DNA from: an uncultured Acidobacteriaceae bacterium
GTDB lineage: Bacteria > Acidobacteriota > Terriglobia > Terriglobales > Acidobacteriaceae
Direction: 5' to 3'
NCBI GenBank assembly: GCA_963742455.1
Contig: CAVULU010000008.1
Coordinates: 10,593-74,592, forward strand
Length of the DNA: 64,000 bases
Made by a program: the position numbers and the translations under genes. Under the pieces are notes generated by a model. The model did no database searches. It was given only the letters and a program-made list of their open reading frames with translations, and had not been told where the DNA came from. Positions 3,218 to 51,825 of this stretch are shown piece after piece; within the stretch, counting starts at the first letter, position 1; the number at the start of each line of letters is the position of its first letter.

Positions 3218-3308
3218 TCCAACTTATCGTAGCTTCGTTTTTTATCTATCTTCCGGGTAATAGAGGACATAGCAGGCCCCGGACCAACCTGAATGGTAAA
3301 GTGAGGAA

Positions 3309-7724: not shown

Positions 7725-7947
7725 GATGGCTGCCCTTGGAATCAACTACGGCTTCACCCGGAATACAGTTCCATTGAATTTAGTCAGGGGCTCTCGCAGT
7801 TCCGAACGTTTACTGGCCTCTCAAGTACCACAGGCATCGAATCGATCGTGTACCGTTCGCGCCGGTGAGTATTCGAGACTCGGTGCTCAAGGGCAGAAGA
7901 CTAAGCCGCTTTATTCGGGGGAGCAGGGATGGAACAAGAGGAAGCCG

Positions 7948-12054: not shown

Positions 12055-12232
12055 TACCATCTCCAATTCTTTCGCCCGCCGCGGAAAGGCCTGAGGCCCT
12101 TTCAAGAGCCGACTTATAGACGCGGCGAGATTTCCCCGGTTAAAGGGCAATTCTCTTGTTTATGCACTCCGGGATCCCCCTGAGGCTTTCGTCCAGGCCC
12201 TGAAACCACCAACATTTGCCCAAACCCATGTG

Positions 12233-12261: not shown

Positions 12262-12612
12262 GGCGGGGCGAACCAGCCTGGGAACCCCTTGGTACCGCAT
12301 GGAAACAGAACAGTTGCGCCCATCATGCTATCCAGATGCATCGGGGGTAGGAAGCAAACCGGGGCCAGCGACTCTTCCTTGATTTTCTGGGTACGATCGG
12401 TGCTTCTATCGCGCATATGGACAGCGGAATGGGTGCGGCTAACGATAAAATAGTTATGCCCTACAACGTTGGTAATGGAGATCTTGTCGGAGGCGGTCTC
12501 ATCCGTAATTGGTTGGGCTAGACTCATTTTGAACCCAATGGCCTACTCCAACCACAATTATCCGGTAGCACTTGTGCCGGAAGCCGTTTTCGCCGCAACA
12601 CCCGGAGAACAG

Positions 12613-21865: not shown

Positions 21866-24313
<2,448 letters not shown>

Positions 24314-24485
24314 CTGATAAGGCCAACGAAGTGTCAAAAACAAAGGCAGCACTTTTTTCGCGGGGGACTGCGGAGACGGGGCTGCCTTCGATTTGTGCTT
24401 CGCATCGGTTTTGGGATGCAGGAGGCAGTACCATCCCCTATCGATTCACACCGGAAGCCGGAAATTGGACTCTGTTGCGCATCGC

Positions 24486-25223
24486 TCAGGCTGACAGCCC
24501 TTCGACGGTATCGCCCTGAAGCATCTGCGCGTCGGCGAAGCGGTAGCCAACATAAACATCAGTCAGCAGGTAGATGGGGTTGGATGGATCGTCTTCAATC
24601 TTCTTGCGCAGTTGGCGGATGAAGGTGCGCAGATACTCTACCTCTTCGCGGCAATCTGCTCCCCACACCGCGGTGAGCAGTTTGGCGTAGGAAACGACGC
24701 GACCGGCTCGGCTCATGAGGCAGTAGAGGATGTCGAACTCCTTGCGCGTGAGATGGACGGCCTGGCCGCGTTTGGTGACGCTGCGCTTGGCAGGATTGAG
24801 GTGGATCTCACCAATCTCGATAGGCGCATCTTCGGCGCGTGCCGGTGCATGCACCCTGCGAACCGCGGTACGAATGCGCGCTATGAGTTCGCGGGTACTG
24901 AAGGGCTTGGTAATGTAGTCATCGGCGCCGAGCTCAAGCGCCTCGACTTTTTCTTCTTCTCCGTCGCGCACCGTAAGCATCAGCACAGGCAGGCGCGGCG
25001 CAAAGGCACGGATACGGCGCAGAGTCTCAATGCCGCCAATGCCAGGCATATTGATGTCGAGAAGAACAACGTCGAATTGGCTGGAATGAAGCAACTGCAG
25101 CGCCTCTTCTCCGCGAGAGGCTTCGCTGAACAGGAATCCAAGTTCTGCGAGCGGCGGCTTGAGTGCGCGGCGAATCGCGGGTTCATCATCAACGATCAGA
25201 ATGCGAATGGCGGGCTGGTTCAT
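24486..25223 (-). CDS. KdpE-like OmpR-family response regulator
   Basis: ILIVDDE, LLDINMPG, GADDYITKPF, winged helix with VWG...EEVEYLRTFIRQLRKKIE.DPSNP.YLLT..YVGYRF. Confidence 0.88.
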   Translation of the reverse strand: MNQPAIRILIVDDEPAIRRALKPPLAELGFLFSEASRGEEALQLLHSSQFDVVLLDINMPGIGGIETLRRIRAFAPRLPVLMLTVRDGEEEKVEALELGADDYITKPFSTRELIARIRTAVRRVHAPARAEDAPIEIGEIHLNPAKRSVTKRGQAVHLTRKEFDILYCLMSRAGRVVSYAKLLTAVWGADCREEVEYLRTFIRQLRKKIEDDPSNPIYLLTDVYVGYRFADAQMLQGDTVEGLSA

Positions 25224-26752
25224 GATTCCCTCTTTCGTGCCTGGGATGGTATGGCCGCATAAAACGTGTTGCCTTCATCGTGGTCGCTGGTGACCCAGAC
25301 GTATCCGTCATGGATGGTCGCGGCACGCTTGGCCACCGACAATCCGATTCCTGTACCGGAGGCACGATTGGATGAAGTGGAAGAGCGATAGTAACGATCG
25401 AAGATGCGCTCACGGTCTGCGATGGGAATGACGGGACCAAAACTGTGCACCGAAAAAATAACTTCGGCCTTCGACTGCACGGCGCGAATGGTAATGGTGG
25501 TGCCGTAGATTGCATATTTACAGGCGTTGTCGATGTATTGCGACAACAACATCGTCATCAGGCGGCGGTCGCAGCAGAGCACCAGGCTGTCATCGGGCAG
25601 ATCGATCGCCACCTTCATCGAGGCGAGCCGATCCCTGAGACTCGCGACGACCTCATCCAGCAGCGACGCGACGCCAACGGGGATGGCGTGGACGGTGACT
25701 TCGCCAGCATCGAGTCGAGCGGTGGTAAGGAGGCGGGTCGTGAGATCGTTCAGCAGGTCGGCCTGCTCATTGATGAGCGACACCAATTCGCTTTGGCCCG
25801 CGGAAAGCTTGCCCATCTCGTTGAGTCCGGTGGAGGCAGCGCGAATGGCTGTGAGCGGAGTTTTGTACTCGTGCGCGAGTGAGTCGAGCACGGTGGAGCG
25901 AAGCTGCTCGGTCTGGCGCTCTGTCTCGATGCGGCTTTCGTTGGCGAAGGCACGATAGCGGTCGAAGGTTACGGCTATCAATGAAGCAATGGCATTGTTT
26001 GTCAGCGGGCTGGTCTCGCCACGGACCACGATGGAACCGATGGGAACGGTGCCGAGCCGAACGACGCGCCGCGCAATGCCGGTTTCGGAATCATCGTCTG
26101 AGGTTTCAAAGTAGTAGACGTTCTGCGCGAGTTCCTGGGGATCGACATTCCAATAGCCAGCCTGGTAAATCTCGTGCAGGTCCGCATCGAAGATCACTAC
26201 TGCCTCGAGGGCGAATATCTCATGCACCAATTCGGCGAGTTGGGCGCCAGGCTCCACATGCAGATTCATTTGCAGTGTGCGCCTTGTGAACTCGTACAGA
26301 TCCTGCATCTGTCCACCCCACGAATCAGTCTCGCGCGCGTGCTCAGTGACACGCGCGGATAGGCGGCTGATGACAAGCGCGGTCAGGATGAAGGCCACGA
26401 GGGTGATGGAGTTCGCCGGATCCGTGGCTGGATTTAATCTGCCCTGGCGCGCCGCGAAGTAGCTTTGCACCGCGACTGCCGAGAGTGAAACAATCACGGC
26501 TTGCCAGAAGCCGCACCAAAGAGCTGTGGGCACGATGATGAGCAAGTAGAGCAGAACAGCGACAGGCAGCAGCCACTGCAGCCAGTGCGCAAAGACTCCT
26601 GCCAATACCACGGAAACAATGCCGAGAGCGCACTCCGTGGAGAACAGGAGCGCCTTCAATCCGGAGCCGCGCGAGCGACGGCCTGCAAACGCGGCGCGGA
26701 GAGGGATGTAGGTTCCTGACAACCGGTCACCGGCCTTTCCGTCGAGTGCCAT
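25220..26752 (-). CDS. KdpD-like sensor histidine kinase (DUF4118 4TM + GAF-like + HisKA + HATPase), N-terminal KdpD/Usp domains absent
   Basis: TM block ending DPANSITLVAFILTALVISRLS, H-box LDSLAHEYKTPLTAI, DNACKY, IFDRYYR, GTGIGLS. 4-nt overlap with the regulator. Confidence 0.85.
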   Translation of the reverse strand: MALDGKAGDRLSGTYIPLRAAFAGRRSRGSGLKALLFSTECALGIVSVVLAGVFAHWLQWLLPVAVLLYLLIIVPTALWCGFWQAVIVSLSAVAVQSYFAARQGRLNPATDPANSITLVAFILTALVISRLSARVTEHARETDSWGGQMQDLYEFTRRTLQMNLHVEPGAQLAELVHEIFALEAVVIFDADLHEIYQAGYWNVDPQELAQNVYYFETSDDDSETGIARRVVRLGTVPIGSIVVRGETSPLTNNAIASLIAVTFDRYRAFANESRIETERQTEQLRSTVLDSLAHEYKTPLTAIRAASTGLNEMGKLSAGQSELVSLINEQADLLNDLTTRLLTTARLDAGEVTVHAIPVGVASLLDEVVASLRDRLASMKVAIDLPDDSLVLCCDRRLMTMLLSQYIDNACKYAIYGTTITIRAVQSKAEVIFSVHSFGPVIPIADRERIFDRYYRSSTSSNRASGTGIGLSVAKRAATIHDGYVWVTSDHDEGNTFYAAIPSQARKRES

Positions 26753-27090
26753 AAGGTCGCTTCACCCTGGCAGTGAAATGGGTACACCTTCAAGTGGCGC
26801 AGACCGTGAGTAACTTGAACCTCTGCGGCTTTGACGCGAAAATATTCTTCCTGAATCCGCGCGCCCATATATGTCGAACTGCGCTGAATTTCAGAGAACT
26901 CCCCACGTGCACCTCTCTTTTTCATAACAAATGGGCTGGCATCGTGCGCGGGAAGATTGTTTCTAGATATTAACAGTTCTTCATTTGATTCTTATGCGCT
27001 GGAGCGTAGTAGAGGCCATCTTGGCGATTCCGAGCTTCGTCAAAGCAGCCCTAATTCAAGCTTTGCCGCGGGATAGAGAGCAAATCGAAA

Positions 27091-27140
27091 TTTAGATTTT
27101 CTTTCGCTAATCCTCATCTGTTCTTTACGGATTCTTTGCA
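27091..27140 (+). promoter_or_regulatory. Candidate KdpE/OmpR-type tandem boxes (TTT-hexamers phased at 11 bp)
   Basis: TTTAGA(27091)-N5-TTTCGC(27102) and TTTACG(27124)-N5-TTTGCA(27135). Same geometry as the E. coli KdpE site TTTATA-N5-TTTACA. Confidence 0.45.
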
Positions 27141-27347
27141 TTACTAATGACTAGCCGCAGTGATTCAAAACATAGAGGAAGCAGCGCTGAACGCGCATGA
27201 CTTCAACATCTTTGCCTTGGCAGAGACGCAATCCCGTTGTGTCTTCCGTGGCGTGACTGAACGGTAGTCCGTATCAAAGAGATTGAGTCAACAACCTCAC
27301 TTCTCATAAAACTATTCGTTTCATACCCGATTTTGTCAGGAGGAATC

Positions 27348-28619
27348 GTGTCGATATCTCTCAAATTGATTCACATCGTTCTCCAATCCTCAGGCGCTGC
27401 GTTACTCGCAACGGCAATTGTTGCCGGCGCTCAAGCTCCGGCAACACCAGCACCTGCCGCAGCACCGGCACCTGCTGTTGCTACAGCAGCGGATGCAACT
27501 CCAGCTGCCGCAGCCGCTCCGACCCCGCTTTCCACATTCGTTCTCACGGGTCCACTGCAATGGCTGCCTCCGGCGACCTTCGATGCAGGACCATTGGGCA
27601 AGCTGAGCGTGAACGGCATTTTAACTGGTTTCTCGCAATTCCAGACCAATCACGTGCCGGGAGATTCCGGTGCGCAAGCCACCCTGAGCAACGGACAGAT
27701 TTTCATCCAAAAGGCAGACGGGAAAGTTCAGTACTTCGTCCAGGCGGGTGTCTACACCATGCAGGCACTTTCGGTACCGTTTACCAGCGCCCAAACTACC
27801 ATGACGAATTTCTACGGGCCTGTTCCAGTTGCATACTTGAAGTTGCCAGTGGGAAAGACGACCCAGTTCCTCATCGGCTCTCTTCCGACGCTGATGGGCG
27901 CGGAGTCCACCTTCACGTACCAGAACTTCAACGTGGAGCGCGGCATCGTCTGGAACCAGGAAAACGCCATCAATCGCGGCGTTCAGGTGAACCAAACGAT
28001 TAACAAATACCTCAGCGCCTCGTTCAGCTGGAACGACGGTTACTATTCCAACCGCTACTCCTGGCTCTCGGGCTCGGTCACCTTTACGAAGGGGCCGCAT
28101 AGCCTGGTGTATGACGGGATGGGGAACCTCGGACAGACCGTCTTTGAGACGGCCGCCACGCCGATACAGAACAACGGCTACATGCACGCGGTGATCTACA
28201 CGTACACCAAGGGTCCGTGGATCATTTCGCCGTACTTCCAATATGGCAACCTGCCGACCAACGCGACAGTGGGCGTTTACAAGGCCACATCCGCTACCGG
28301 CGGCGCGATCAACGTCAGCTACGCCTTCAAGAGCGGATTCTCGCTTCCGGCGCGCGTGGAATACATCTCGAGTTCCGGCAATGCAATCGACGGATCGGTT
28401 AATTTGCTGGGCTTTGGAGCTGGCAGCTCAGGCACTACTTTCACGGCAACGCCCACCTACCAAAAAGGGGGAATGTATGTGCGCGGCGATCTCGCGTGGG
28501 TGCATGCAGGGAGCTACACGCCGGGAAGTGTCTTTGGCACAACAGGAACAGATGGCGATCAGTTTCGAGGCGTACTTGAATTTGGCTTCATCTTTGGCAA
28601 AAACATGATCGAAAAATAG
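27348..28619 (+). CDS. Outer-membrane beta-barrel porin (BBP2/OmpL-like)
   Basis: GTG after AGGAGG; signal peptide and Ala/Pro linker; alternating beta-strands; G..PT..G.ES.F..QN.N motif; LEFGFIF near the C-terminus. Confidence 0.75.
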   Translation: MSISLKLIHIVLQSSGAALLATAIVAGAQAPATPAPAAAPAPAVATAADATPAAAAAPTPLSTFVLTGPLQWLPPATFDAGPLGKLSVNGILTGFSQFQTNHVPGDSGAQATLSNGQIFIQKADGKVQYFVQAGVYTMQALSVPFTSAQTTMTNFYGPVPVAYLKLPVGKTTQFLIGSLPTLMGAESTFTYQNFNVERGIVWNQENAINRGVQVNQTINKYLSASFSWNDGYYSNRYSWLSGSVTFTKGPHSLVYDGMGNLGQTVFETAATPIQNNGYMHAVIYTYTKGPWIISPYFQYGNLPTNATVGVYKATSATGGAINVSYAFKSGFSLPARVEYISSSGNAIDGSVNLLGFGAGSSGTTFTATPTYQKGGMYVRGDLAWVHAGSYTPGSVFGTTGTDGDQFRGVLEFGFIFGKNMIEK

Positions 28620-28639
28620 CCAAACACTTGAGGATTTTC

Positions 28640-28676
28640 CCGTCCTTGCGATGCAATCAACGATTCGCAAGGGCGG
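28640..28676 (+). terminator. Stem-loop between porin and permease (terminator or processing/stability hairpin)
   Basis: CCGTCCTTGCGA / TCGCAAGGGCGG 12-bp stem; no clear U-tract. Confidence 0.45.
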
Positions 28677-28863
28677 CCCTTGAACTGAAGACTCATGCAC
28701 TTAGAAGCCTCGGTTTCCTCATTTCATCTTCATCGATCGCTGCGTAGCATTCACGTAACCCAGAAACCTGAAGCCTCAGTCCGGAGCGCTTTCCGGCGAA
28801 TCTCAAAACATCCCGTAGCTTAAGCCCCGGGAGAAGACCTCAAGAACTTGAATTTCCAGGAGA

Positions 28864-30651
28864 ATGTTCATGGCAGATCAGAAAGCACCACAGATGCAGG
28901 CAACTCTGGGCCTTACCGGGTTGACCAGCAACGCAATGGCGCTGATTGCTCCCGGCGCCTTCCTATGGCTCACGTTCGTCATCCAGGCAGGCACTGGAAC
29001 CACTGCGCCAGCCATGTGGCTGGGCATCTTTGGCGCCCTGTTACTTTGCCTGGCTACCGCGGTCGCCTACGCTGAAATCTCCAAACTCTACCCCGGCACC
29101 GGCTCTAGTTACTATTACGCAGAGCAGGCGCTGCTCTCAAAGGACAAAGCCTTCAGGTATGCGCGCGTAGCCAAATTCATTGTTGGCTGGGGCTCGCATC
29201 TTTACTACTGGGTCTATCCCGGCGTGATGGTGGCGACTACGGGTATTTTCGTCGGATACGTGGTTGGCTTCCTCTATCCCAATTTCATCAGCGGCGGCAA
29301 TCCCGGCCCAGTTTTCATGGGCTTGGTCGCGGTCGTCTTTTCCTTCTTCGTGGCTTGGATCGCGCAGAAGGGCGCCGGCGCTTCGACGGCGGTGAACCTG
29401 GCGATCAATATTGTGCAGATTTCCGCGCTGATCGTTTTCAGCGTGCTTGCCCTTGGCTATCGCGTTAACCATCCTTCCGGATCCACCGGCTTCCAGTACG
29501 ACTCGCAGACGCTCTCCACTTACACCTATCAGTTCGCAACCGACAAGACAGGCGCGACGATTCGCGATGCGAGCGGCAACCCGCAGCCGTTGCTCGACTC
29601 AGCCGGCAAACCGGTGCCCTACGTGATCACGTATCCGACAGCGGACGCGACGGGCAACTTCCTGACCCACGAGAACGCCGCATCGGTCGTGAAACCGCAC
29701 AAATTCAGCTACATGTTCATCCAGGCTACCGTCGCCATTCTGATCCTGGTCGGCTTCGAATCGGTAACATCGATGGGAGGCGAGGCAAAAAACCCAACCA
29801 AACATATACCCATCGCAGTCATTGCGTCGCTATTGATTCAAGGACTGGTGTGTTACCTGATCGAGTATTTTGCGGCGAATTACTTCCTTAACTCGGGTTA
29901 CACGATGCAGACCGCTGTAAGTTCGGCAGCTCCCATCGGTGACATGATGATCATTGTCGGCGATGCGCTGCTTGGCCAGGGCCACGGTAAGTACTTCATG
30001 CTGGCCGAAGCCATCACCGTCTTCCTAGCGCTGATCGGCACCACGCTTGCCTGCATGAACACCGGCGCCCGCGTAACCTACGCAATGGGCAAGGATGACG
30101 AGGCTCCCGAGCATTTCGGTATGCTGCATGCAAAGTCGCTGACACCGCGGACGGCGATCTGGACGCTGGCCGCGATATCAGCAATCATCGGCTGCATCGC
30201 CGTTTCCCTGGTCTTCGCCGATGCCAGCGCACCGACAGATGCCACCATTGCAGCTCTCCCGCACGGCATCCTTTCCAACTTTGGCTATAGTACCCACGAC
30301 AAGTTAGCCGCGCTGCCGAACTCGCTGCTCACCATCACACTCACTTCCAATTTCGGCACATTCATCCTGTATGCGCTTAGTTGCTTCCTGTGCATCGTGG
30401 CGTACAACAAGCGGCCTGACCACAACTTCCTTGTGCACACATTGATTCCCGGTTTTGGACTTCTAGCCAACATCGTTTGCATGGCCTTCTACCTGATCAG
30501 TCCGGTATTTGGCCTGGGAACCTTCAAGGAACCATTGCTGGCGCTGGGCATATCGGCACTGTGGGGCATCTACGGAGCCGTCTACTTCCTGCGCTCATCG
30601 AAGGCAAAGGGCAAATCTGTCCTGCTGGAAACTAAGAACGTGACCACCTAG
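28864..30651 (+). CDS. APC-family (amino acid/polyamine/organocation) permease with large loop insertions
   Basis: TM1 NAMALIAPGAF, AYAEISKLYPGTGSSY, TM6 LVGFES....GGEAKNP.K.IP, CMNTGARVTYAMG; 12-TM pattern. Confidence 0.88.
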   Translation: MFMADQKAPQMQATLGLTGLTSNAMALIAPGAFLWLTFVIQAGTGTTAPAMWLGIFGALLLCLATAVAYAEISKLYPGTGSSYYYAEQALLSKDKAFRYARVAKFIVGWGSHLYYWVYPGVMVATTGIFVGYVVGFLYPNFISGGNPGPVFMGLVAVVFSFFVAWIAQKGAGASTAVNLAINIVQISALIVFSVLALGYRVNHPSGSTGFQYDSQTLSTYTYQFATDKTGATIRDASGNPQPLLDSAGKPVPYVITYPTADATGNFLTHENAASVVKPHKFSYMFIQATVAILILVGFESVTSMGGEAKNPTKHIPIAVIASLLIQGLVCYLIEYFAANYFLNSGYTMQTAVSSAAPIGDMMIIVGDALLGQGHGKYFMLAEAITVFLALIGTTLACMNTGARVTYAMGKDDEAPEHFGMLHAKSLTPRTAIWTLAAISAIIGCIAVSLVFADASAPTDATIAALPHGILSNFGYSTHDKLAALPNSLLTITLTSNFGTFILYALSCFLCIVAYNKRPDHNFLVHTLIPGFGLLANIVCMAFYLISPVFGLGTFKEPLLALGISALWGIYGAVYFLRSSKAKGKSVLLETKNVTT

Positions 30652-30684
30652 GCAGAAAGTCGTCCTTCCTCCACCGAACACAAC

Positions 30685-30745
30685 CACTGGGTGGCATACC
30701 TTCTCAGCTCGATTCTGAAGGCTGCAGATGGGAGACCACCCAGTG
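30685..30745 (+). other. Nested stem-loop in the permease-PP2C spacer
   Basis: CACTGGGTGG / CCACCCAGTG perfect 10-bp outer stem enclosing a CCTTC(T)CAG / CTGAAGG inner stem. Confidence 0.5.
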
Positions 30746-30868
30746 TTCTTGCAAAACCTTAGTCTTTGAACTTCAACAGCATCCTCCATTGCGTTACGCG
30801 CAAGAAGCTTGAAATCACCCTGCGAACAAGGACCCGTTCGTGAGGACCCCAAAAGAGGCTACCGGTCC

Positions 30869-31672
30869 ATGTTGGATGTCGTGTTTGGTCAGGCAAGCGA
30901 TCCCGGCAAGATTCGCACGAACAACGAGGATGCCATGGGATCTTTTGTTCCGAATTCGCGCCACCAGGCTCGTTCCCACGGTTATTTATTCATCGTTGCC
31001 GATGGCGTAGGAGGACTTGACCTGGGCGAAATAGCTTCCTCCACGGCGGTTTCCGTTCTCATTCAGGAGTTTGAAAAGGCGCAGGGCGGGGCCATGCTTA
31101 TCAGCCTGCTGCCTCGGCTCGTGCAGCACGCCAACGCGGCGGTCCACGACCGTACGCTGGCGCCGGAGTTTCGCGGAAAGAAGATGGCGACGACAGCAGT
31201 CGCCTGCGCTCTTCGACACGACCAGGCCATCATCTCTCATGTGGGCGATTCGCGCTGCTATCTCGTACGCAAAGGCGTTGCAAAGCAAATCACTCAAGAC
31301 CATACCTGGGTGAATGAACAGAGAAAAATGGGAGTGATTTCAGCAAGCGATATGGCGACTTCAGATTCGCGTCATGTGCTGATACGCTCTCTTGGACCAG
31401 AGCTGTTTGTTTCGCCCGACACCACGGCGCTCACGATTCAGGCCGGCGACGTCCTGGTGCTCTGTTCCGACGGCTTGCACGACGAAATGCCCGAGGCGAC
31501 CATTGCTTCGATCGTCTCGCAAAACAAACCCGTCGACGAGATTGCACAGGAGCTGGTTGCACGCGCGGTCGAGATTGATGGCAATGACAATACCACGGCG
31601 CAGGTGATTCGCATCCGTTCGGTCGAACAGGTCGGCATGTACCGCGGCCGTCCCTACCGGCTTCCCTCCTGA
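30869..31672 (+). CDS. PP2C-family (PrpC/Stp-like) Ser/Thr protein phosphatase
   Basis: SDPGKIRTNNED, IVADGVGG, HVGDSRCY, TQDH, LCSDGL, DNTT. Confidence 0.92.
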   Translation: MLDVVFGQASDPGKIRTNNEDAMGSFVPNSRHQARSHGYLFIVADGVGGLDLGEIASSTAVSVLIQEFEKAQGGAMLISLLPRLVQHANAAVHDRTLAPEFRGKKMATTAVACALRHDQAIISHVGDSRCYLVRKGVAKQITQDHTWVNEQRKMGVISASDMATSDSRHVLIRSLGPELFVSPDTTALTIQAGDVLVLCSDGLHDEMPEATIASIVSQNKPVDEIAQELVARAVEIDGNDNTTAQVIRIRSVEQVGMYRGRPYRLPS

Positions 31673-31763
31673 ATGACTTCCCCAAGCCTTACGAATTCCT
31701 TAGAGATACGCCGCCAAAGCTCGATAGAGTAGGAGCAGCACAAGCATTGGAGAACGCCGCCCG

Positions 31764-32738
31764 ATGGGCATCCTCGACACCATTGAAACCGGGTCGCAAA
31801 TCGATTCTTACCGCATTGAGGCACCAATAGCGCGAAGCGGCATGGCGTCGATCTTTCGCGCCGTGGACGTTCGCGACAATCGTGTGGTCGCGTTGAAGAT
31901 TCCGCACCCTGACATGGAAGCCGATCCGATCCTCTTCGATCGCTTCAAGCGGGAAGCGGACATCGGTGAGAAGCTCGATCACCCCATGGTGATGCGCGTC
32001 TACGGCGGCGAGAAACGTTCCCGAATCTACATGGTGATGGAGTGGTGCGAGGGCAGACTTTTGCGCGACATCCTCGCCGAAGGCCGCATGCCGCAAGATC
32101 GTGCTATCCATATCGCCATCGAGGTGCTTGATGCACTGGAATACATTCATGAGCAGGGCGTCGTGCACCGCGATCTGAAGCCGGAAAACATCATGGTTGA
32201 CGCCAACGACAACATCAAGCTCATCGACTTCGGCATTGCCGGAGATTCGGCGGCCCGCCGGCTGACCTATGCGAACTTCACCGCGACACTTGGCACCGCG
32301 GATTACATCTCCCCGGAACAAGTAAAAGGCAAGCGGGGAGACGGACGCACGGACATCTATGCTGTGGGCATCATCCTTTACGAGATGCTTACGGGCCGGT
32401 TGCCCTTCTCCGGCTCATCTCCGATGGAAATAATGAATGACCGCCTGTTGAACTATCCTCTGCCTCCCAGGATTGCGGAGCCCTCGATTTCGCCGCAGTT
32501 GCAGGAAGTGCTTTACCGGGCGCTGGAACGCGATCCGCAAAATCGCTATGCGAAGGCGCGCGAGTTTGCACATGATTTGCAGCATCTCGCAGAGGTGGGA
32601 GTGGAAGACCGTATCGAACTACGCGACTGGAACAAGCGGAAATCCCATACATCGCGACAGGTGCTCTACTATGGTGCACTTGCGCTCATTCCGGTTGTGA
32701 TTCTTCTGCTGATGATGCTGGTCGCGCATCACAGGTAA
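31764..32738 (+). CDS. Hanks-type Ser/Thr protein kinase with a single C-terminal TM helix
   Basis: SGMASIF, VALK, HRDLKPEN, DFG, GTADYISPEQ, DIYAVG; hydrophobic tail with essentially no extracellular domain. Confidence 0.92.
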   Translation: MGILDTIETGSQIDSYRIEAPIARSGMASIFRAVDVRDNRVVALKIPHPDMEADPILFDRFKREADIGEKLDHPMVMRVYGGEKRSRIYMVMEWCEGRLLRDILAEGRMPQDRAIHIAIEVLDALEYIHEQGVVHRDLKPENIMVDANDNIKLIDFGIAGDSAARRLTYANFTATLGTADYISPEQVKGKRGDGRTDIYAVGIILYEMLTGRLPFSGSSPMEIMNDRLLNYPLPPRIAEPSISPQLQEVLYRALERDPQNRYAKAREFAHDLQHLAEVGVEDRIELRDWNKRKSHTSRQVLYYGALALIPVVILLLMMLVAHHR

Positions 32739-32844
32739 ACCCAGTGGAAGAACGATTGAAACGCAAATCTTCACGGCGTCTTTATGGGTCAGCCACTACA
32801 TTCTGATCAAAGCCCCCCTCGCCTTTACCGCCATAAGGAGACCC

Positions 32845-33870
32845 ATGACAAAATACAAACTTGAATACATCTGGCTCGACGGCAAGAAACCGATCCCTGA
32901 ACTTCGCGGTAAAACCCAACTCAAATCCTTTGAGAATCCGCCCACTCTTGCCGATCTTCCCCTGTGGGGATTCGACGGCAGTTCCACGATGCAGGCGGAG
33001 GGCAGCAAATCAGACTGCGTGCTGCAGCCCGTGGCCCTCTACCCCGACGCAAGCCGGAAGAATGGGTATATCGTTCTTTGCGAAGTTATGCATCCTGACG
33101 GCACCCCGCATTCCACCAACATGCGCGCGACGATTGAAAATGATCCGGACCTATGGGTCGGTCTTGAGCAAGAATATTTCCTCTACAAAGATGGTCGACC
33201 GCTGGGCTTTCCGAAAGAAGGTCATCCTGCTATCCCCCAGGGGCCGTATTATTGCGGCGTCGGCTACAAATACATGGGCAGTATGGCGCGTCAGATTGTT
33301 GAAGAGCACCTGGAACTCTGCCTCGCCGCGGGCATCAATCATGAAGGGATCAACGCGGAAGTGGCAAAGGGACAGTGGGAATTCCAGATCTTCGCCAAGG
33401 GTTCTGCCAAGGCGGCGGATGATGTCTGGACCGCTCGCTACCTGATGTTGCGTCTCTGTGAGAAATACGAAGTTGACGTCGTGTTGCATTGCAAACCCAT
33501 CAAGGGCGACTGGAATGGATCAGGCATGCACTGCAACTTCTCGACCAAATATCTGCGCGAAGAAGGCGGCAAAGAATACTTCGAAGATCTCATGAAGGCT
33601 TTCGAAAGGTTCATCCCCGAGCACATCGCCGTCTACGGCCCAGACAACCATCTCCGTTTAACGGGTCACCACGAAACACAGTCCATCGATAAGTTCAGCT
33701 ACGGTCTTTCTGATCGCGGGGCTTCGATACGGATGCCGGTCAACTTTATCAAGAACGGCTACAAGGGCTATCTGGAAGATCGCCGCCCGAATTCCGAAGG
33801 CGATCCCTACCAGATCGTCTCTCGCATTCTGAAGACAATCAACAGCGTTGAAATGCCAGTCATGGCCTAG
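32845..33870 (+). CDS. glnII: Glutamine synthetase type II
   Basis: MTKYKLEYIWLDG, WGFDGSST.QAEG, QGPYYCGVG, GINAEV..GQWEFQ, GDWNGSGMH, RLTG.HET, DRGASIR, GYLEDRRP; 341 aa. Confidence 0.92.
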   Translation: MTKYKLEYIWLDGKKPIPELRGKTQLKSFENPPTLADLPLWGFDGSSTMQAEGSKSDCVLQPVALYPDASRKNGYIVLCEVMHPDGTPHSTNMRATIENDPDLWVGLEQEYFLYKDGRPLGFPKEGHPAIPQGPYYCGVGYKYMGSMARQIVEEHLELCLAAGINHEGINAEVAKGQWEFQIFAKGSAKAADDVWTARYLMLRLCEKYEVDVVLHCKPIKGDWNGSGMHCNFSTKYLREEGGKEYFEDLMKAFERFIPEHIAVYGPDNHLRLTGHHETQSIDKFSYGLSDRGASIRMPVNFIKNGYKGYLEDRRPNSEGDPYQIVSRILKTINSVEMPVMA

Positions 33871-33976
33871 ACTTCGAGGAAGGTTTCAAGAGAAAAACGC
33901 GACTTCATTCTCTTGCGCTGACTGAGTCGTTCATGTAACCTGAGTTGTTCTGTCAATGTTTAATCAACAATCAAGG

Positions 33977-34021
33977 GCGCACGAAATTGGGAAGGTTTCC
34001 ACGCTTCTCCATTTCGTGCGC
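33977..34021 (+). other. Long stem-loop between glnII and the glnA-like gene
   Basis: GCGCACGAAAT..GGGAAG / CTTCTCC.ATTTCGTGCGC inverted repeat. Confidence 0.5.
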
Positions 34022-34104
34022 TCAGTCTGATTTCGGGCTGCCCGCGTTGCGCGTTGTAGCCGCGTCCGATTAGAAATCCGTATCATCCTGGCAAAAGGAG
34101 AGCC

Positions 34105-35535
34105 ATGTCATCTGATTACCGGAATTTTCTCGCCCTCTCGTACGATGAGCTTGAAGAACTGAACCTGGAGGCCAAGGCGGACCGCATGAACCGTCTCCCT
34201 ATCGAAGAGGTTCGCGAAAAGCGGATCAAGTATTTGACAGAACAAAAGCACATCAAGGCAGTGACGGTCTTGTTCTCCGATCTCGAGGGCCGCCTGCACC
34301 TATTGGACTACGATAAAAAGTTTTTACTCGGCTCGCACGAGAATCTGACCTTCGACGGCTCCTCTATACGCGGCTTTACGGCGCAGAAGGAAAGCGACCT
34401 CCGCCTTGGCATCGACTGGAGTGCGTTCTACTGGGTCCCGGCTGACGTATTCGGCAACGGCAAGGTGCTAGTTTTCGGCACGGTGATCGACAAGGACGGC
34501 ACGCCTTACTCCGGCGACCTGCGCGGCGTGCTCAAGGCCTACTCCGACAAGTTGTTCAAGGACAAGGGCTACACGCTCAACGCGGCCAACGAAATCGAAG
34601 GATTTCTCTTCGCCGGTAAAGACGCGGAGCGCCATTACCACGAGACATTGAAATTCGACTTCATCAACACTGGCGGCTATTATCACGTGCTGCCGCTTGA
34701 TCCACTACGCCAGTTCATCGACACAGCCGCCGAAGTGCAGCGCGCGATGGGTTTCCAGAACGAAAAGGATCACCCCGAAGTTGCGCCCAGCCAGTTTGAA
34801 ATCAACTACGGATACGGCGAAGTTGTCGCGGCCGCGGACCAGATTCAGCTCTACAAGCTGCTATGTCGTCAGATCGCTAACAATATGGGCTACACCGCAT
34901 GTTTCCTGCCCAAGCCGGTGGTCGGTGTGAACGGCAGCGGCATGCACACCAACGTCTCAGTCTCCAAAGACAAGGTAAACCTGATGTGGGACCCCAAAGG
35001 CCAGGAAATGCTTTCCGCCTTCGGGTGGAAGTTCATCGATCGCATCCTGACCAGCGCACTGGATATTTGTCTGATCCTGAATCCGAGTGTGAATGCTTAC
35101 CGCCGCCTTGATCCGCACTTCGAGGCCCCCAACCAGATCAAGGCATCGGCCACCGATCGTGGTTCCATGGTGCGCGTACCGATCGGCAACTCGCGCTCAA
35201 TGCGTGTTGAGGTTCGGTCGGTTGCACCGGATGCGAATCCTTATCTGGCTCTTTACTCAATCTTCAAAACTGGCATCGACGGCAATACTGCCAAGATCAA
35301 GAACCTGCGCCAGGCAGAGCGGTACTTGCCGGACCACATTCAAGCGGCCATCGACGATTTCAAGGGGTCGGAGTGGATCGCCGAGATACTTGGATCCGAT
35401 GTACAAGGCCGGTTTGTCGACCTGAAGCAGGCCGCCGCTAATCGCTGCGCGCGCGAACTTGGCACCTTTGTCAAGGCTCCCGAGGTACAGTTCCACCACG
35501 AGGTTTACAACCAGTCGCTCTGGAACCTGTTCTAG
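34105..35535 (+). CDS. Glutamine synthetase type I-like (GlnA family / gamma-glutamyl ligase)
   Basis: FDGSS, NEIEGFLF, HPEVAPSQFEI, FLPKP..GVNGSGMH, NPSVNAYRRLDP, DRGSMVRVP, RVEVRS.APDANPYL. Confidence 0.88.
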   Translation: MSSDYRNFLALSYDELEELNLEAKADRMNRLPIEEVREKRIKYLTEQKHIKAVTVLFSDLEGRLHLLDYDKKFLLGSHENLTFDGSSIRGFTAQKESDLRLGIDWSAFYWVPADVFGNGKVLVFGTVIDKDGTPYSGDLRGVLKAYSDKLFKDKGYTLNAANEIEGFLFAGKDAERHYHETLKFDFINTGGYYHVLPLDPLRQFIDTAAEVQRAMGFQNEKDHPEVAPSQFEINYGYGEVVAAADQIQLYKLLCRQIANNMGYTACFLPKPVVGVNGSGMHTNVSVSKDKVNLMWDPKGQEMLSAFGWKFIDRILTSALDICLILNPSVNAYRRLDPHFEAPNQIKASATDRGSMVRVPIGNSRSMRVEVRSVAPDANPYLALYSIFKTGIDGNTAKIKNLRQAERYLPDHIQAAIDDFKGSEWIAEILGSDVQGRFVDLKQAAANRCARELGTFVKAPEVQFHHEVYNQSLWNLF

Positions 35536-35561
35536 AGCGAACGTCTCATCCTCTGATCGAC

Positions 35562-35604
35562 ACGCAGAAAGGCGCGGCCAGCGACGGTCGCGCCTTTTCT
35601 GCGT
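35562..35604. terminator. Bidirectional rho-independent terminator between convergent glnA-like and TPR genes
   Basis: ACGCAGAAAGGCGCGGCC-AGCGAC-GGTCGCGCCTTTTCTGCGT inverted repeat. Confidence 0.75.
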
Positions 35605-35625
35605 TTGGTTGAGAAGTCCACTGAT

Positions 35626-36405
35626 TCAGTGCGCTTCAGATTCAGAGCTCCTGGCGAGACGTGCATGCGCGATTTCCAGTACTTGCGCGGCCTCTTCTTT
35701 GTTCCCCATCTCGGTGAGGACATCGGCGAGTTTCTCGGCAAGGGGGAGTGAATCCGGGTATGTGTTGACTCCATCGCGCAGCACTCTGGCCGAGTCGGAA
35801 AATTTCCCCACTCGCGTATAGGCCAGATCAAGATTGATGCACTGCTTCACGGTCCTCTGGGGCGCCAGTCTCGCCGTATCGAGCAATTCGATCACTCCCT
35901 CGAGGTTGTTGTCCGCAATCAAGTCGTCGGAGAGCTTGTCGAGCGCGTCAGAGTATTCAGGATCGATTTCGAGGGCGGCCAGCCATTCCGTTTCGGCATC
36001 AGCGGTCGCATGGGTACTATCCAGTGCCTCTGCCAGCAGCAGATGCAGCTTGATGTCGCAGTATCCGAACTTCTCTGCCTCCTGCATCGCGGTAATTGCC
36101 TCTTTGATGTCCCCGACAAGGTAGAGGCTCGCGCCAAACATGAAGGCGACGTGAGGCATGTCCTTTTGCTTCGGATCCATCTGCAGCGACGTCGCGAAGG
36201 CATTCGCCGCACAGTTGTAGTCTTTCTCGTCACCAAACCACACCCCGAGGTCATTCAATGCGGCGGTGTCGGGTTTTCCGGCAAACTTCGCTTTCATCGA
36301 CTCAGGGGGCGTGCAAGGGGCCTGCGCCCAACCGGCGGATCGAAGTAACGCGGAAAACGCAAGGAGGGAGACGAATCGAATTGGACTGGAAGGACGCATG
36401 CGCAT
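35626..36405 (-). CDS. Secreted TPR protein with N-terminal C-x33-C motif
   Basis: Signal peptide ..AGWA-Q; TPR-like helices (LGVWF, HLLLAEAL, ALEIDP); begins just after the TolB-like gene stop. Confidence 0.8.
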   Translation of the reverse strand: MRMRPSSPIRFVSLLAFSALLRSAGWAQAPCTPPESMKAKFAGKPDTAALNDLGVWFGDEKDYNCAANAFATSLQMDPKQKDMPHVAFMFGASLYLVGDIKEAITAMQEAEKFGYCDIKLHLLLAEALDSTHATADAETEWLAALEIDPEYSDALDKLSDDLIADNNLEGVIELLDTARLAPQRTVKQCINLDLAYTRVGKFSDSARVLRDGVNTYPDSLPLAEKLADVLTEMGNKEEAAQVLEIAHARLARSSESEAH

Positions 36406-36422
36406 GTTGGCTCGGCTCAAGT

Positions 36423-38201
36423 CTAATGCTGCTTTTCAACCTGCGCGCCGCTCGCAACATCGGCGCCGTCGGCGACGTGTACCTCGATCTGATCGATGCC
36501 GTCAGGATTGATGTTCACGAACTCGGGGAGGTTTACGGCGCGATTCGCAGCCGTCGCATTGTCGATTAAAATCGCGGGACTGGAATTGCCATTTTCGTCG
36601 ATGTGGGTGAGATACATCTGGGTATAGGGCGAGCGGGCCTTCGATGAGAAGACCAGCCACCTGGCATTGGGCGACCAGCTATGCCATGAGTTCATCAGGC
36701 GCGTGTTGGCCTGCAGACGCCGCGCCGCGCCGCCGCGGACAGAAACAATATAGAGCTGGCTATCGGGCCGCATCAGTTGGCCGTTCTTGCACTGCACGAA
36801 GACGATCCATTTGCCGTCGGGCGAGATCTTGGGAAAGTTGTTGCTCATCCCGTTCTGCGAAGCGCCCTTGATCGGCTCCGGTGTGCCGCCTTTTCCGCCG
36901 TTGAACGGGATTCGGTAGAGATCGTACTGGATCTGCGCTTCGTTGGGATCGTTGGCATGGGTGGCGCCGGGGTGGCCCGGTGGGCGCGGATCTCGTGCTT
37001 CGGCACGGGCAAAGACGATGTACTTTCCGTCAGGACTCCACACGCCGTCGGTCTGCACATATTTCGAATCGTCGGCGCCGGGGAGCGGTTCTCGCAGGCT
37101 GGCAGACCGGTTGTAATACTCCAGAATGCCGCGCGTCGGGAAGAACACCTGAAGAAACCGATAGTCCATGAAGTTGGTGACGTAATAACTGTCGATCATG
37201 CGGCTCAGTGCCGGTCCAGCAAACGTGCTCAGCACATATTGTCCGTTGGGAGAGACCTGCGACATGAAGCCGACGCGCACCGCACCGACTTTTCCATCCG
37301 TGTTCCAGTGCACCATGTCTTTGCTCTGGATGACCATGTGCTTCTGCACTGGAACCACGGCGTAGAGCCCCTTGTCGTTGGCCGGGCCATCAATGTCCAT
37401 GCCGAAGGTCTTGCCGTCGGCTGAGAAGGAGTGGCAGTTGGCGCAGGTCGGCATATCTTTCAGCACGGTGTGGCTCTCAGGCTTGCGAATGTCGCGGATA
37501 CGCCAATGAATCAGGTGAATATCGGATTGCGCGAGAGGGGCCACTGCTCCTCCGCTTCCCGATGCGGGCATCAGCGGAACATCGCGATAGAAAATCGGCG
37601 CGCCAACGTCGTCTTTAGAAGTAGTGAGTGTGATGTGCGACTGAGACCAGGCGACCTGCCCTTCGCGATACCCGGTGATTGTCACCGTTGCCGACTTGCC
37701 GGCGGAGTGCGACTGGATCGCAGCCCACGTCGCGGCATCCGGTTTCCAGGTCCAGGTCGCTGCCTGTTGCGCGTTCAATTTCGGCGGGGAGTTCGAGTCT
37801 GCCACGCAATCCGGATCGATCGGTCCAATCTGCATGCGCTCGCCTTTTGACGTTGCATGAATAGGTTCAGATTTGTCGGCGAAAGATATGTCGATGGACC
37901 AGGATGTGCCCGCGGCATCCCGCCATAAAAAAGTGGGCGGAGTAATCCCCGGCGGAAAGATCGAGCCATCTTCGGGATAATCGATGGAAATCGGAGTCAG
38001 AACAGGGGCTGTGGCGCTCGCCGCACAAGCGAAGAGATTCCCGGCGAACCTGCTTTGCCGGCCTGACGGAAATGAGGAATCCAGCAGAATGAAGACGGAA
38101 ATCGTGAAGACCGAGAACATTCCTTTCCAAAACAGCCGCGAAAATGAGGCTCCCTGTTGCACTGTTCCTCCGAAGAGCGAAGATTCTGCATCGAGGAACA
38201 A
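36423..38201 (-). CDS. TolB/PD40-repeat beta-propeller protein with single CxxCH
   Basis: SPNG/SPDG/WSPN WD40-like repeats, TCANCHSFS (37431-37445), IDYP..GSIFPP.I..PTFLW N-domain. True start uncertain. Confidence 0.8.
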   Translation of the reverse strand: MFLDAESSLFGGTVQQGASFSRLFWKGMFSVFTISVFILLDSSFPSGRQSRFAGNLFACAASATAPVLTPISIDYPEDGSIFPPGITPPTFLWRDAAGTSWSIDISFADKSEPIHATSKGERMQIGPIDPDCVADSNSPPKLNAQQAATWTWKPDAATWAAIQSHSAGKSATVTITGYREGQVAWSQSHITLTTSKDDVGAPIFYRDVPLMPASGSGGAVAPLAQSDIHLIHWRIRDIRKPESHTVLKDMPTCANCHSFSADGKTFGMDIDGPANDKGLYAVVPVQKHMVIQSKDMVHWNTDGKVGAVRVGFMSQVSPNGQYVLSTFAGPALSRMIDSYYVTNFMDYRFLQVFFPTRGILEYYNRSASLREPLPGADDSKYVQTDGVWSPDGKYIVFARAEARDPRPPGHPGATHANDPNEAQIQYDLYRIPFNGGKGGTPEPIKGASQNGMSNNFPKISPDGKWIVFVQCKNGQLMRPDSQLYIVSVRGGAARRLQANTRLMNSWHSWSPNARWLVFSSKARSPYTQMYLTHIDENGNSSPAILIDNATAANRAVNLPEFVNINPDGIDQIEVHVADGADVASGAQVEKQH

Positions 38202-38478
38202 GGAAGCAAACTGGCTGCTTATGCGTGCAGTTCGCTCAATGCTGATACGAGTTTGGAATTGCCGGCCGAAGCAAGGATGATTTGATCGACAGCATTTCCG
38301 ATTGCTGACACTGGCAAAACATGAATGAAAGTCGACAATACACTGGATGTTCGCAGGCGGTAAATTGTGCTGTCAAGGCGATGCGCCTTCGCGATGCGCT
38401 TCCGATGCAATCCATTCATGGCCCGCAAATTGCGGCTCAAATTGGATTCAATCATGCGGTACTTCGCCGAAGGTGATG

Positions 38479-40605: not shown

Positions 40606-40885
40606 GGATGTCTCCAGTAATTATCTATTTCTATGACCGCTTTATGCCCCGAAAAGGGTCAGCCCCAAGCAAGCATAAAGAATTCTACTGAATTGATTAT
40701 CGCGCGGCAGCGAATTGCGTCACACCGCCTGGGTTAGTCGCAAGACGTCTGATCGGAGTGTGATCTTAATGAAATGAAGGGCTTATGCGGCATTGAAGCG
40801 CATGGCGGGGTTTGGCGAGACATTGCGCCCTTCCTAGCCAATTGACGCTTGCATGCTCGGCGATCGCCGATTTCCAACCCATTGA

Positions 40886-40901
40886 TGTGAGCGAGATCAC
40901 C
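40886..40901. promoter_or_regulatory. CRP/FNR-family-like site TGTGA-N6-TCACC
   Basis: 9/10 match to TGTGA-N6-TCACA, in the divergent DUF3857 / TolB-TPR spacer. Confidence 0.35.
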
Positions 40902-40957
40902 GAAGCATTCGCTTCGTCCCTTCATCCTCAAGATAACGACGAAGTTGAATAGCGCTG

Positions 40958-50032: not shown

Positions 50033-50138
50033 GACTGCTTCCTCAGTACCTCAGAAGCAGTTTGGCATAAAGCTCAGTCCGCGGCCAGAGACGATTCGCT
50101 CTGGGAATTGCTATCCTGACAGGCAGGAGATCTTTTCA

Positions 50139-51764: not shown

Positions 51765-51825
51765 TCCAACTCGCAAGTGATTGGCGGTTGCACCGCGACA
51801 ATGTGAGAATGAAGAAGCTCAAAGG

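Follow-up and report, generated by a model that had tools for sequence, protein, structure and literature searches.

Control of nitrogen metabolism has been worked out in Proteobacteria (NtrBC, PII, GlnD/GlnE), Actinobacteria (GlnR, AmtR, PknG), Firmicutes and Cyanobacteria. To our knowledge, it is almost unexplored in Acidobacteriota and Chloroflexota, two phyla that dominate many soils and peats. Here we describe a locus at positions 24,486 to 35,535 of a 64,000-nt stretch of contig CAVULU010000008.1 (assembly GCA_963742455.1; the whole stretch is hereafter called the window). The genome is that of a soil bacterium of the genus Terracidiphilus (Acidobacteriaceae), and near-identical proteins carry the names Terracidiphilus sp. 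or Acidobacteriaceae. At this locus a two-component system (TCS) faces genes for an outer-membrane porin, an APC-superfamily permease, a PP2C-type phosphatase, a Ser/Thr kinase and two glutamine synthetases (GS). The locus is probably a locally wired regulon for nitrogen acquisition and assimilation. An initial annotation of this DNA had stated that no described system with this layout was known, and the literature searched likewise holds no description of the module, of the permease-phosphatase-kinase trio or of the regulon.

Several characterised systems resemble parts of the locus. Canonical KdpDE controls a K+ pump, and NH4+, which GS assimilates, resembles K+ in size and charge. The resemblance to KdpD/KdpE lies in a sensor whose DUF4118 four-helix membrane module leads into DHp and catalytic domains, and in the OmpR-family regulator; unlike KdpD/KdpE, the system described here is without the KdpD N-terminal and Usp domains, has no detected GAF domain and no kdpFABC nearby, and it is predicted to act on porin, APC permease and GS genes instead of the kdpFABC K+ pump. 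In Actinobacteria, GlnR is an OmpR-family regulator that binds direct repeats 5′ of GS, ammonium-related and transporter genes under nitrogen limitation (PMC3662644). At the family level, the logic of an OmpR-type regulator for GS and nitrogen-scavenging genes is shared; GlnR, however, is an orphan without a cognate kinase that recognises GTnAC-n6-GTnAC, whereas the locus described here has a cognate membrane kinase, another motif and a seemingly local regulon. The actinobacterial GlnH-GlnX-PknG-GarA pathway also links a Ser/Thr kinase genetically to membrane or solute proteins and to the glutamate/glutamine node, but its membrane partner is a solute-binding protein with GlnX rather than an APC permease. 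The kinase of that pathway, PknG, is a soluble protein that carries TPR and rubredoxin domains; the kinase here is minimal, tail-anchored and paired with a PP2C phosphatase, and no FHA-domain target is encoded at the locus. Cyanobacterial PII is phosphorylated at Ser49 and paired with the PP2C phosphatase PphA, and the PII kinase was still unidentified as of a 2015 review (PMC4285133). Ser/Thr phosphorylation and a PP2C phosphatase in nitrogen signalling are the common ground, and in Chloroflexota the trio lies a few genes from PII; the hosts, however, are not cyanobacteria, the Terracidiphilus locus has no PII gene, and PII is only a candidate target of this kinase. CadC-LysP, BceS-BceAB and DcuS-DctA each combine a membrane sensor that has little or no periplasmic domain with a transporter as its possible signal source, as the sensor and permease of this locus may also do; these systems are without a kinase/phosphatase pair. 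LysP is itself an APC permease.

The eight genes of the initial annotation were all verified at their coordinates from the list of open reading frames (ORFs) and from Pfam and NCBIfam profile searches (Table 1). Its account of their arrangement is likewise upheld: the response regulator and histidine kinase genes, which overlap by 4 nt (ATGA), lie on the minus strand and are divergent from six plus-strand genes, in the order porin, APC, PP2C, Ser/Thr kinase, glnII and glnA. Profile scans of 38 ORFs spread across the window detected no Kdp pump subunit domain, in agreement with its statement that kdpFABC is absent. Domains were assigned with Pfam, and scores were read against the curated equivalog cut-offs of NCBIfam models. 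The related set used for comparison consists of the 80 best species-level loci from GTDB, for which the permease served as anchor; all come from Terracidiphilus/Acidobacteriaceae metagenome-assembled genomes (MAGs; loci L001-L080). Counts of presence and absence refer to the 59 loci with full coverage on both sides.

The promoters of the locus share one activator box. Comparison of the 580-bp divergent spacer between the histidine kinase and porin genes in 47 related loci aligned conserved 8- and 10-mers into a 51-nt block (nTCTTTT-n5-TCCTCAT-n3-TTCTTTATG-n4-GTTTGCrTTACTrGTG), which is conserved in 29 aligned loci with the consensus nTCTTTTnnnnnTCCTCATnTnTTCTTTATGnnnnGTTTGCnTTACTnGTG. The main porin promoter region of the window reads TTCTTTC gcta ATCCTCA tctg TTCTTTA cgga TTCTTTG, followed by a -10-like TACTAA at 27142-27147. 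A 20-nt two-repeat position weight matrix (PWM), built from the porin sites alone, was run over both strands of the whole 64-kb window. It gave four matches of at least 12 bits (at 26977, 27110, 28715 and 32767), all of them on the plus strand and intergenic in this locus; the next-best scores are 9.3 and 8.1 bits, and Markov-1 random sequence yields 0.1 matches per window. With the full PWM, the main porin region scores 62.7 bits and is the only match in the window of at least 15 bits. The box at 28715 lies 149 nt before the permease gene and that at 32767 lies 78 nt before glnII. The remaining box, at 26977, precedes the main porin box by about 130 bp and could serve either as an additional promoter or as an auxiliary site; many related loci likewise have a second site, 110-135 bp before their main box.

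In its general form, the box is a tandem direct repeat with an 11-bp period (wTCYTCAy-n3-wTCYTTATG), and every box class has a TAnnnT hexamer 10-12 nt downstream. Across 1.5 Mb of related loci, 194 matches reach at least 13 bits, including 88 at porin, 52 at APC, 28 at glnII and 15 at glnA genes, with 9 elsewhere. The APC box occurs in 52 loci, always at a distance of about -155 relative to the APC start (consensus TTCtTCATTTCATCtTTATc-n10-TAgcaT). A box at -67 to -88 precedes the first GS gene in 43 loci (glnII in 28, glnA in 15), and it is always the first GS gene that bears the box, whichever GS gene is present. A divergent clade with more distant histidine kinases and regulators retains variant boxes, and 190 kb of distant loci contain no PWM match of at least 17 bits.

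This layout is that of the Pho box of PhoR/PhoB, with its class II activator promoter geometry: at least two 7-nt direct repeats with an 11-bp period stand about 10 nt before the -10 hexamer and replace the -35 element, and several transcription units, including one for a porin, share the box. The half-sites differ (wTCYTCA/TTCTTTA here, CTGTCAT there), as does the sensor type, and the predicted target genes here belong to nitrogen rather than phosphate metabolism. Given the TAnnnT hexamer 10-12 nt downstream, the repeats are placed over the -35 position, as in Pho-box promoters. Since such a layout is expected of an OmpR-family activator, the adjacent regulator is the likely driver of the boxes. 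The regulatory link from the TCS to the downstream genes, proposed in the initial annotation, is supported by conserved synteny and by the presence of one box with OmpR-type geometry at the porin, APC and first GS genes.

The six plus-strand genes had been described as a single operon ending at a shared terminator. The terminal hairpin is indeed strong, but a single operon with a single terminator is contradicted by stable hairpins after the porin, APC and glnII genes and by at least three separate activator-box promoters. Without a U-run, the hairpin after the porin gene may be an attenuator or a stabiliser instead of a canonical terminator; at the glnII-glnA position, an alignment of 14 spacers shows a hairpin with a U-run in related loci. 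A generic promoter and terminator scan returned counts on a par with those of shuffled sequence and missed the real hairpins. The region 24000-36500, including its long leaders, was also searched for a riboswitch or other known RNA and has no Rfam match at E <= 1. A sigma-54 promoter in the divergent spacer was considered and rejected by eye, as the GG/GC spacing is unsuitable. Just 5′ of the PP2C gene (30770-30800), the sequence GCATCCTCCATTGCGTTACGCG is similar to parts of the porin box (ATCCTCAT … TTGCGTTAC). The matrix does not score it, and it could be either a degenerate site or a chance resemblance.

Table 1. Predicted features of the Terracidiphilus locus, in window coordinates.
Feature	Position	Strand	Basis or score
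Response regulator, OmpR/PhoB family, 245 aa	24486..25223	-	Pfam Response_reg 2e-33, Trans_reg_C 1.9e-22
Membrane histidine kinase, 510 aa	25220..26752	-	Pfam DUF4118 3e-12, HisKA 2.2e-11, HATPase_c 4.1e-19
Upstream activator box: TTCTTCAtttgATTCTTATG, 10 nt, TAGTAG	26977..27012	+	PWM 20.3 bits
Main porin promoter region, 3-4 direct repeats, 11-bp period	27099..27149	+	Conserved 51-nt block
BBP2 (OmpL-like) outer-membrane beta-barrel porin	27333..28619	+	Pfam BBP2 1.2e-52
Hairpin after porin gene	28640..28677	+	-23.9 kcal/mol, z = -3.5; no U-run
APC-gene activator box: TTCCTCAtttcATCTTCATC, 10 nt, TAGCAT	28715..28750	+	PWM 17.0 bits
Divergent APC-superfamily permease, 595 aa	28864..30651	+	Pfam AA_permease_2 1.5e-19
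Hairpin between APC and PP2C genes	30685..30745	+	-31 kcal/mol, z = -3.0
PP2C-type Ser/Thr phosphatase, 287 aa, cytoplasmic	30809..31672	+	Pfam PP2C 9.1e-19
Hanks-type Ser/Thr kinase, 324 aa	31764..32738	+	Pfam Pkinase 2.7e-51
glnII activator box: ATCTTCAcggcGTCTTTATG, 10 nt, TACATT	32767..32802	+	PWM 19.1 bits
Type II glutamine synthetase-like protein (glnII), 341 aa	32845..33870	+	NCBIfam GlnII 371.9 bits
Strong hairpin between glnII and glnA	33975..34023	+	-36.3 kcal/mol, z = -5.4
GSI-alpha-like glutamine synthetase (glnA), 476 aa	34105..35535	+	TIGR00653 271 bits
Hairpin terminator between convergent glnA and TPR-protein gene	35561..35607	.	-39 kcal/mol, z = -7.3, then UUUGGUU

The arrangement is conserved far beyond chance. 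In a synteny comparison of the kind that the initial annotation had proposed, run on the 80 related loci, the TCS is linked to the porin locus in 46 of the 59 complete loci, with the regulator and kinase genes upstream in the same minus-strand orientation; the PP2C and Ser/Thr kinase genes lie downstream in all 46 of those. At least one GS gene is present in 40/46 TCS-type loci and in 0/13 TCS-less loci (Fisher p = 6.7e-9, uncorrected for shared ancestry). Contrary to what had been supposed, the GS pair itself is no fixed part of the module: species carry glnII, glnA, both or neither, and some related loci have a third GS-like gene instead.

Paralogues of the permease, 81-85% identical, occur in other settings of the related loci. 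In some of these, a divergent second kinase takes the place of the TCS, and in L008, L024 and L058 an Amt gene stands beside it; no PII was found next to the Amt gene among the listed ORFs of the Terracidiphilus paralogue loci. Other paralogues directly follow nifE-nifN-nifX-DUF269-ferredoxin-nifQ-nifS-nifV-nifW (L033, L040, L046 and L050), and the box is present in three of these four. In L040, the nif cofactor-assembly cluster (nifE-like, nifN-like, NifX-type and NifS-like genes) occupies positions 222-8049, with the box-bearing permease gene after nifW, and L033, L046 and L050 have the same cluster. Nitrogenase genes in Terracidiphilus MAGs were reported in 2022, where the link to the permease is not reported (PMC9599518).

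More distant relatives, in which the permease is 32-52%, the kinase 37-41% and the phosphatase 33-35% identical to the window protein, share a smaller set of genes. L081 and L087 have the order APC>PP2C>STK (STK, Ser/Thr kinase), with permeases 37% (L081, pairwise BLAST) and 46% (L087, from the listing of the representative search) identical to the window permease. In L083 and L084 (permease ~47% identity), the order is APC>STK>PP2C> HK(DUF4118)< RR(OmpR)> (HK, histidine kinase; RR, response regulator); the DUF4118 kinase is unrelated to that of the window, with 27% identity in L083 over the kinase core only, which suggests that DUF4118 sensors have been recruited more than once. Elsewhere, a permease with 52% identity is divergent from a sigma-54-type TCS (L082), the permease gene of the contig that carries P0241 adjoins urate/purine catabolism genes, and L088, the sole locus from a metagenome scan seeded with the L083-type permease, reads PEP carboxylase<APC>STK>GltB (GOGAT large subunit). 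L086 is too short to show gene context. At positions 7890-7925 of L083, 5′ of the permease gene, TTAACgcgatgTTCACgaagaaTTAAC consists of three TnAC units with an 11-bp period and resembles the GlnR 'a-site' repeats (GTnAC-n6-GTnAC).

The same three genes are found in Chloroflexota, in the company of ammonium transport and assimilation genes: Amt>APC>PP2C>STK>GS on the contig that carries P0355, GS>Amt>PII>CitMHS-type carrier>Amt>small membrane protein>APC>PP2C>...STK>...GS in L092 and L093, and Amt>PII>CitMHS>Amt>APC>PP2C>STK>GS with an adjacent GlnE-like gene in L094. In these clusters, a CitMHS/ArsB-type carrier sits between PII and the second Amt gene, and a small membrane protein of 64-79 aa (…LEGTNT…NWL.WLQFLV…LWPLVLFIEK…) is encoded between the second Amt and permease genes (L092:6776-6970, L094:6772-7011 and the P0355 contig). 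Identity to the window proteins across the phylum boundary is 32-43% for the permease, about 40% for the kinase and 33-35% for the phosphatase, and the tail-anchored kinase architecture is kept in the distant partners L081, L083, L087, L092 and L094. As the Chloroflexota GS is only ~30% identical to the window GlnA, separate GS genes have been recruited independently, and the association is functional rather than inherited en bloc. By these comparisons, the permease, the PP2C phosphatase and the tail-anchored kinase are the ancient evolutionary core of the system, to which the TCS, the porin and GS are lineage-specific additions. This core was missed by the initial annotation. The link to nitrogen assimilation that it had drawn is supported, as GS is confined to TCS-type loci, paralogues stand beside amt and nif genes, and distant relatives lie in amt-PII-GS, GOGAT and purine-catabolism contexts.

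Several observations weigh against reading the locus as a nitrogen regulon under the adjacent regulator. Most of the counts stem from orthologous positions within a single genus, and their lack of phylogenetic independence inflates the Fisher test. The assignment of the boxes to the regulator derives from adjacency and repeat geometry only, and the box also occurs at paralogous loci without an adjacent TCS, which fits action in trans and equally fits another regulator. The window glnA has no activator box upstream (no PWM match of at least 8 bits); with the strong hairpin after glnII, this suggests that it may lie outside the regulon. In related loci with both GS genes, glnII is likewise followed by a hairpin with a U-run, and glnA has no box and a different conserved -10-like sequence, with L022 as the exception. 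For the permease, sequence and fold support no more than a general placement with the amino-acid transporters of the APC superfamily, and some distant members of its family are found in non-nitrogen contexts without a kinase. The sequence of the locus is present in six soil-metagenome DNA runs and in no RNA run.

Both Pfam domains of the response regulator are full length, which places it in the OmpR/PhoB family, and its receiver residues D12/D13, D56, T84 and K106 are intact on inspection of the translation. The label 'KdpE-like' proved not to be specific: the best NCBIfam models, all under their cut-offs, are YycF, RpaB, PhoB and MtrA, with KdpE fifth (169.5 bits against the KdpE equivalog NF007820, cut-off 325), and the best PDB matches are RegX3 (162.5 bits), slightly above KdpE (155.6 bits). 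In the histidine kinase, a DUF4118 transmembrane (TM) bundle (residues ~35-133) and an unassigned linker domain (~140-280) precede the DHp domain, which contains H294, and the catalytic domain; hydropathy peaks support the TM bundle, which has almost no periplasmic loops. Its description in the initial annotation stands in so far as DUF4118 and the kinase core are present and the KdpD N-terminal domain (PF02702) and Usp domain are missing by Pfam; the GAF domain was not confirmed, as residues 139-280 have no Pfam match even at E <= 10 and the AlphaFold2 model, made from a shallow alignment, is too poor for judging it (mean predicted local distance difference test score, pLDDT, 46.6). The three matched domains are the same in 120/120 close homologues, none of which has PF02702 or Usp. 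KdpD is the top NCBIfam model for the kinase despite a score far below its cut-off (NF007793, 125.9 bits against 1123), and the best-matching stretch is the generic kinase core, so that a 'Kdp-derived' sensor is not supported. By every tested criterion except partial domain architecture, this TCS falls outside KdpDE, and 'KdpD/KdpE-like' holds for domain order only. With almost no periplasmic loops, the sensor probably senses within the membrane, possibly via the permease or the kinase anchor.

The porin matches PF07642 with 179.7 bits over profile positions 2-339 of 339 and has a signal-peptide-like N-terminus in translation; its probable true start is the GTG at 27348, behind an AGGAGG ribosome-binding site. 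In related loci, a second BBP2 subfamily fills the same slot between the kinase and APC genes (the two subfamilies are clusters 7 and 4), and the upstream box is retained. A third, longer porin type (610 aa, cluster 54) also swaps into this slot in L001-L080. The permease, which matches Pfam AA_permease as well and belongs by profile and LeuT-type fold to the APC superfamily (TC 2.A.3), has 13 hydropathy peaks and an 80-residue periplasmic insert between TM5 and TM6 that is confined to Terracidiphilus-type and P0241-type family members. Among PDB sequences it matches only GkApcT, CAT1 and AdiC, at E 1e-8 or weaker; the best NCBIfam model, TIGR00909, gives 87 bits against a cut-off of 557, and no characterised APC subfamily (CAT, APA, LAT, AGT or KimA/KUP) fits by curated model or close similarity. 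The family is small: among 1.84 billion cluster representatives searched exhaustively by profile, only 1826 50%-identity clusters reach E <= 1e-3. It is recognisable by the signature motifs NAMALIAPGAFLW, HLYYWVYPGV, ILILVGFES, SSAPIGD and NTGxRVTYAMGKD, and TLGLTGxT is conserved at the N-terminus of the permease. Its AlphaFold2 model (moderate, predicted TM-score, pTM, 0.72) is matched by Foldseek with probability 1.00 to BasC, GkApcT, AdiC and LAT1 (TM-score ~0.7 on target). BasC, GkApcT and AdiC come first in the fold search, followed by KimA (rank 15) and NKCC/cation-chloride cotransporters with similar TM-scores; the fold search is thus not discriminating for KimA, which ranks after the amino-acid transporters. 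A KimA-type K+ importer was rejected by sequence, since there is no KimA match and APC amino-acid-transporter motifs are present.

The phosphatase scores 203.7 bits against the NCBIfam Stp1/IreP family (cut-off 230) and has the metal-binding motifs ADGVGG, DGLHD and DNTT visible in translation. In the Ser/Thr kinase, K45, D137 and the DFG motif (155-157) are retained. One C-terminal TM helix (303-321) serves as its tail anchor, and the protein stops 3 residues beyond this helix, without an extracellular domain. It is not a PASTA kinase of the Stk1/PknB type (NF033483, 302 bits against a cut-off of 450), as the kinase domain alone is matched. The glnII product remains below the cut-off of its own model (NF041605, 371.9 bits against 500), with 4bax as best PDB match over the full length (E 2.9e-92). 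The glnA product similarly reaches 271 of 429 bits with TIGR00653 and 137 bits, a lower score, with the gamma-glutamylputrescine synthetase model, and its best PDB matches are archaeal and Bacillus GSI-alpha (E ~4e-67). Inspection of its translation shows the motifs FDGSS, EIEGF, HPEVAPSQFE, NGSGMH, NAYRRL and RVEVR, and a ~40-residue N-terminal extension (MSSDYRNFLALSYDELEELNLEAKADRMNRLPIEEVREKR…, encoded at window positions 34105-34225) has no Pfam match. As read from the translations, the catalytic or phospho-acceptor residues of the response regulator, histidine kinase, Ser/Thr kinase and phosphatase and the GS motifs are present.

From the anatomy, conservation, box statistics and neighbourhoods described above, we infer the following steps for the nitrogen regulon. 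Nitrogen shortage or a related carbon/nitrogen signal would be the inducing condition, under which the histidine kinase would phosphorylate D56 of the regulator. The phosphorylated regulator would bind the boxes overlapping the -35 position and recruit RNA polymerase, activating three transcription units, namely the porin gene, the APC gene (with those for PP2C and the Ser/Thr kinase) and the first GS gene. The porin and permease could then carry a nitrogen-containing solute, such as an amino acid or amine, through the outer and inner membranes, and ammonium would be trapped as glutamine by the additional GS enzymes. The Ser/Thr kinase and PP2C may form a reversible switch tied to the permease, which either tunes transport or relays transport or occupancy to GS, PII, Amt or the regulator. 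The sensor may read its signal within the membrane, possibly through the permease, by analogy with CadC-LysP. A broader version of the switch, which we put forward tentatively and consider possible though improbable, is that the permease, PP2C and kinase constitute a nitrogen 'transceptor' shared across phyla, in which the permease would report external or imported amino-nitrogen and the kinase and phosphatase would reversibly phosphorylate GS, Amt, PII or an OmpR-type regulator. Such a layer might complement or replace GlnD/GlnE-type nucleotidylylation in Acidobacteriota and Chloroflexota, and the kinase would be a candidate for the long-sought kind of PII kinase.

The pattern of neighbours and boxes could potentially be explained in other ways. 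The TCS could sense the substrate of the permease, for instance glutamate or another amino acid or amine, and induce the pore, the permease and GS for its consumption, as in GluR-GluK or AauS-AauR. Substrate-responsive uptake systems usually have their TCS encoded divergently from the transporter under its control, a sensor without a large periplasmic domain could use the permease as co-sensor, and the sigma-54-type TCS that faces the permease gene in L082 suggests dedicated control in more than one lineage. The repeated amt, PII, nif, GOGAT and GS neighbours nevertheless fit general nitrogen status better than a single substrate, and glnII-type GS is classically induced by nitrogen limitation; we consider substrate sensing rather unlikely, while noting that it and a response to nitrogen status are not mutually exclusive. 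A different objection concerns the regulator itself, as an unlinked protein may bind the boxes while the TCS controls something else. In line with this, boxes stand at paralogous loci that have no TCS close by, among them the permease copies linked to nif genes, and the kinase-regulator side has no strong box oriented for typical autoregulation. What makes it improbable is that the TCS adjoins the box-bearing spacer in most of the complete loci, that direct repeats with an 11-bp period over the -35 are typical site geometry for OmpR/PhoB regulators, that in at least one case a remote-box locus (L050) and a TCS locus (L022) come from the same MAG (SPRUCE 516), and that in L083/L084 the trio is accompanied by an independent pair of DUF4118 kinase and OmpR-type regulator.

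The remaining two explanations start from the likeness to KdpD/KdpE. In one, which was that of the initial annotation, a Kdp-derived cation sensor would read NH4+ directly as a mimic of K+ and drive ammonium import and assimilation. The order DUF4118-linker-DHp-catalytic domain is collinear with the C-terminal half of KdpD, whose model is also the best for the kinase, KdpE is one of the two families that match the regulator best in the PDB, and GS genes belong to the predicted regulon. Against this, most of the kinase's 126 bits (cut-off 1123) fall on the generic core, the GAF domain is undetected, four other NCBIfam models outscore KdpE, the permease bears amino-acid-transporter motifs and none of a known cation carrier, and the trio-linked DUF4118 kinase of L083 is barely related. 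We regard such a Kdp-derived ammonium circuit as doubtful, at about the same low level as an unlinked regulator; on direct NH4+ sensing by a Kdp-derived module as such, the evidence here speaks neither for nor against. Least probable is a true K+ or osmotic system, in which the TCS would answer K+ limitation or turgor, and cation or glutamate import together with glutamine synthesis would serve K-glutamate or osmolyte homeostasis. The architectural resemblance to KdpD/KdpE would suit it, the half-sites of the box are T-rich like the E. coli KdpE site, and KimA-type K+ importers share the APC fold, with KimA itself among the matches of the fold search. However, the window has no kdp genes, the permease sequence bears the APC-family signature GFES...E-x-KNP and has no match to KimA, amino-acid transporters come first by fold, and the neighbours conserved across lineages are nitrogen rather than K+ genes.

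Upstream of the locus, the window encodes further signalling and nitrogen proteins with no shown link to it: a phosphatase of the SpoIIE/PP2C type at 9319-10539, glutamate dehydrogenase on the minus strand at 10783-12150, and a response-regulator-EAL protein at 12469-13803. Downstream, TPR, PD40/WD40-like and FG-GAP/ASPIC proteins are abundant (36423-43285 and 50031-63332). A 1265-aa outer-membrane barrel with CarboxypepD_reg and OMP_b-brl_4 domains (53956-57753) and a multihaem cytochrome-like protein (59219-60355) are also encoded.

The locus offers a testable regulon with one regulator, four copies of a single DNA box and three predicted promoters, and in two phyla its permease-kinase-phosphatase trio is accompanied by amt, PII, GS and GOGAT genes. 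Should the trio prove to be a nitrogen transceptor, or a switch for GS, Amt or PII, it would add a branch of Ser/Thr phosphorylation to bacterial nitrogen signalling, and this would help explain nitrogen scavenging by abundant oligotrophs in acid peat. Were the locus merely another nitrogen-regulated transporter operon, the box and its regulator would still provide a first handle on an acidobacterial nitrogen regulon.

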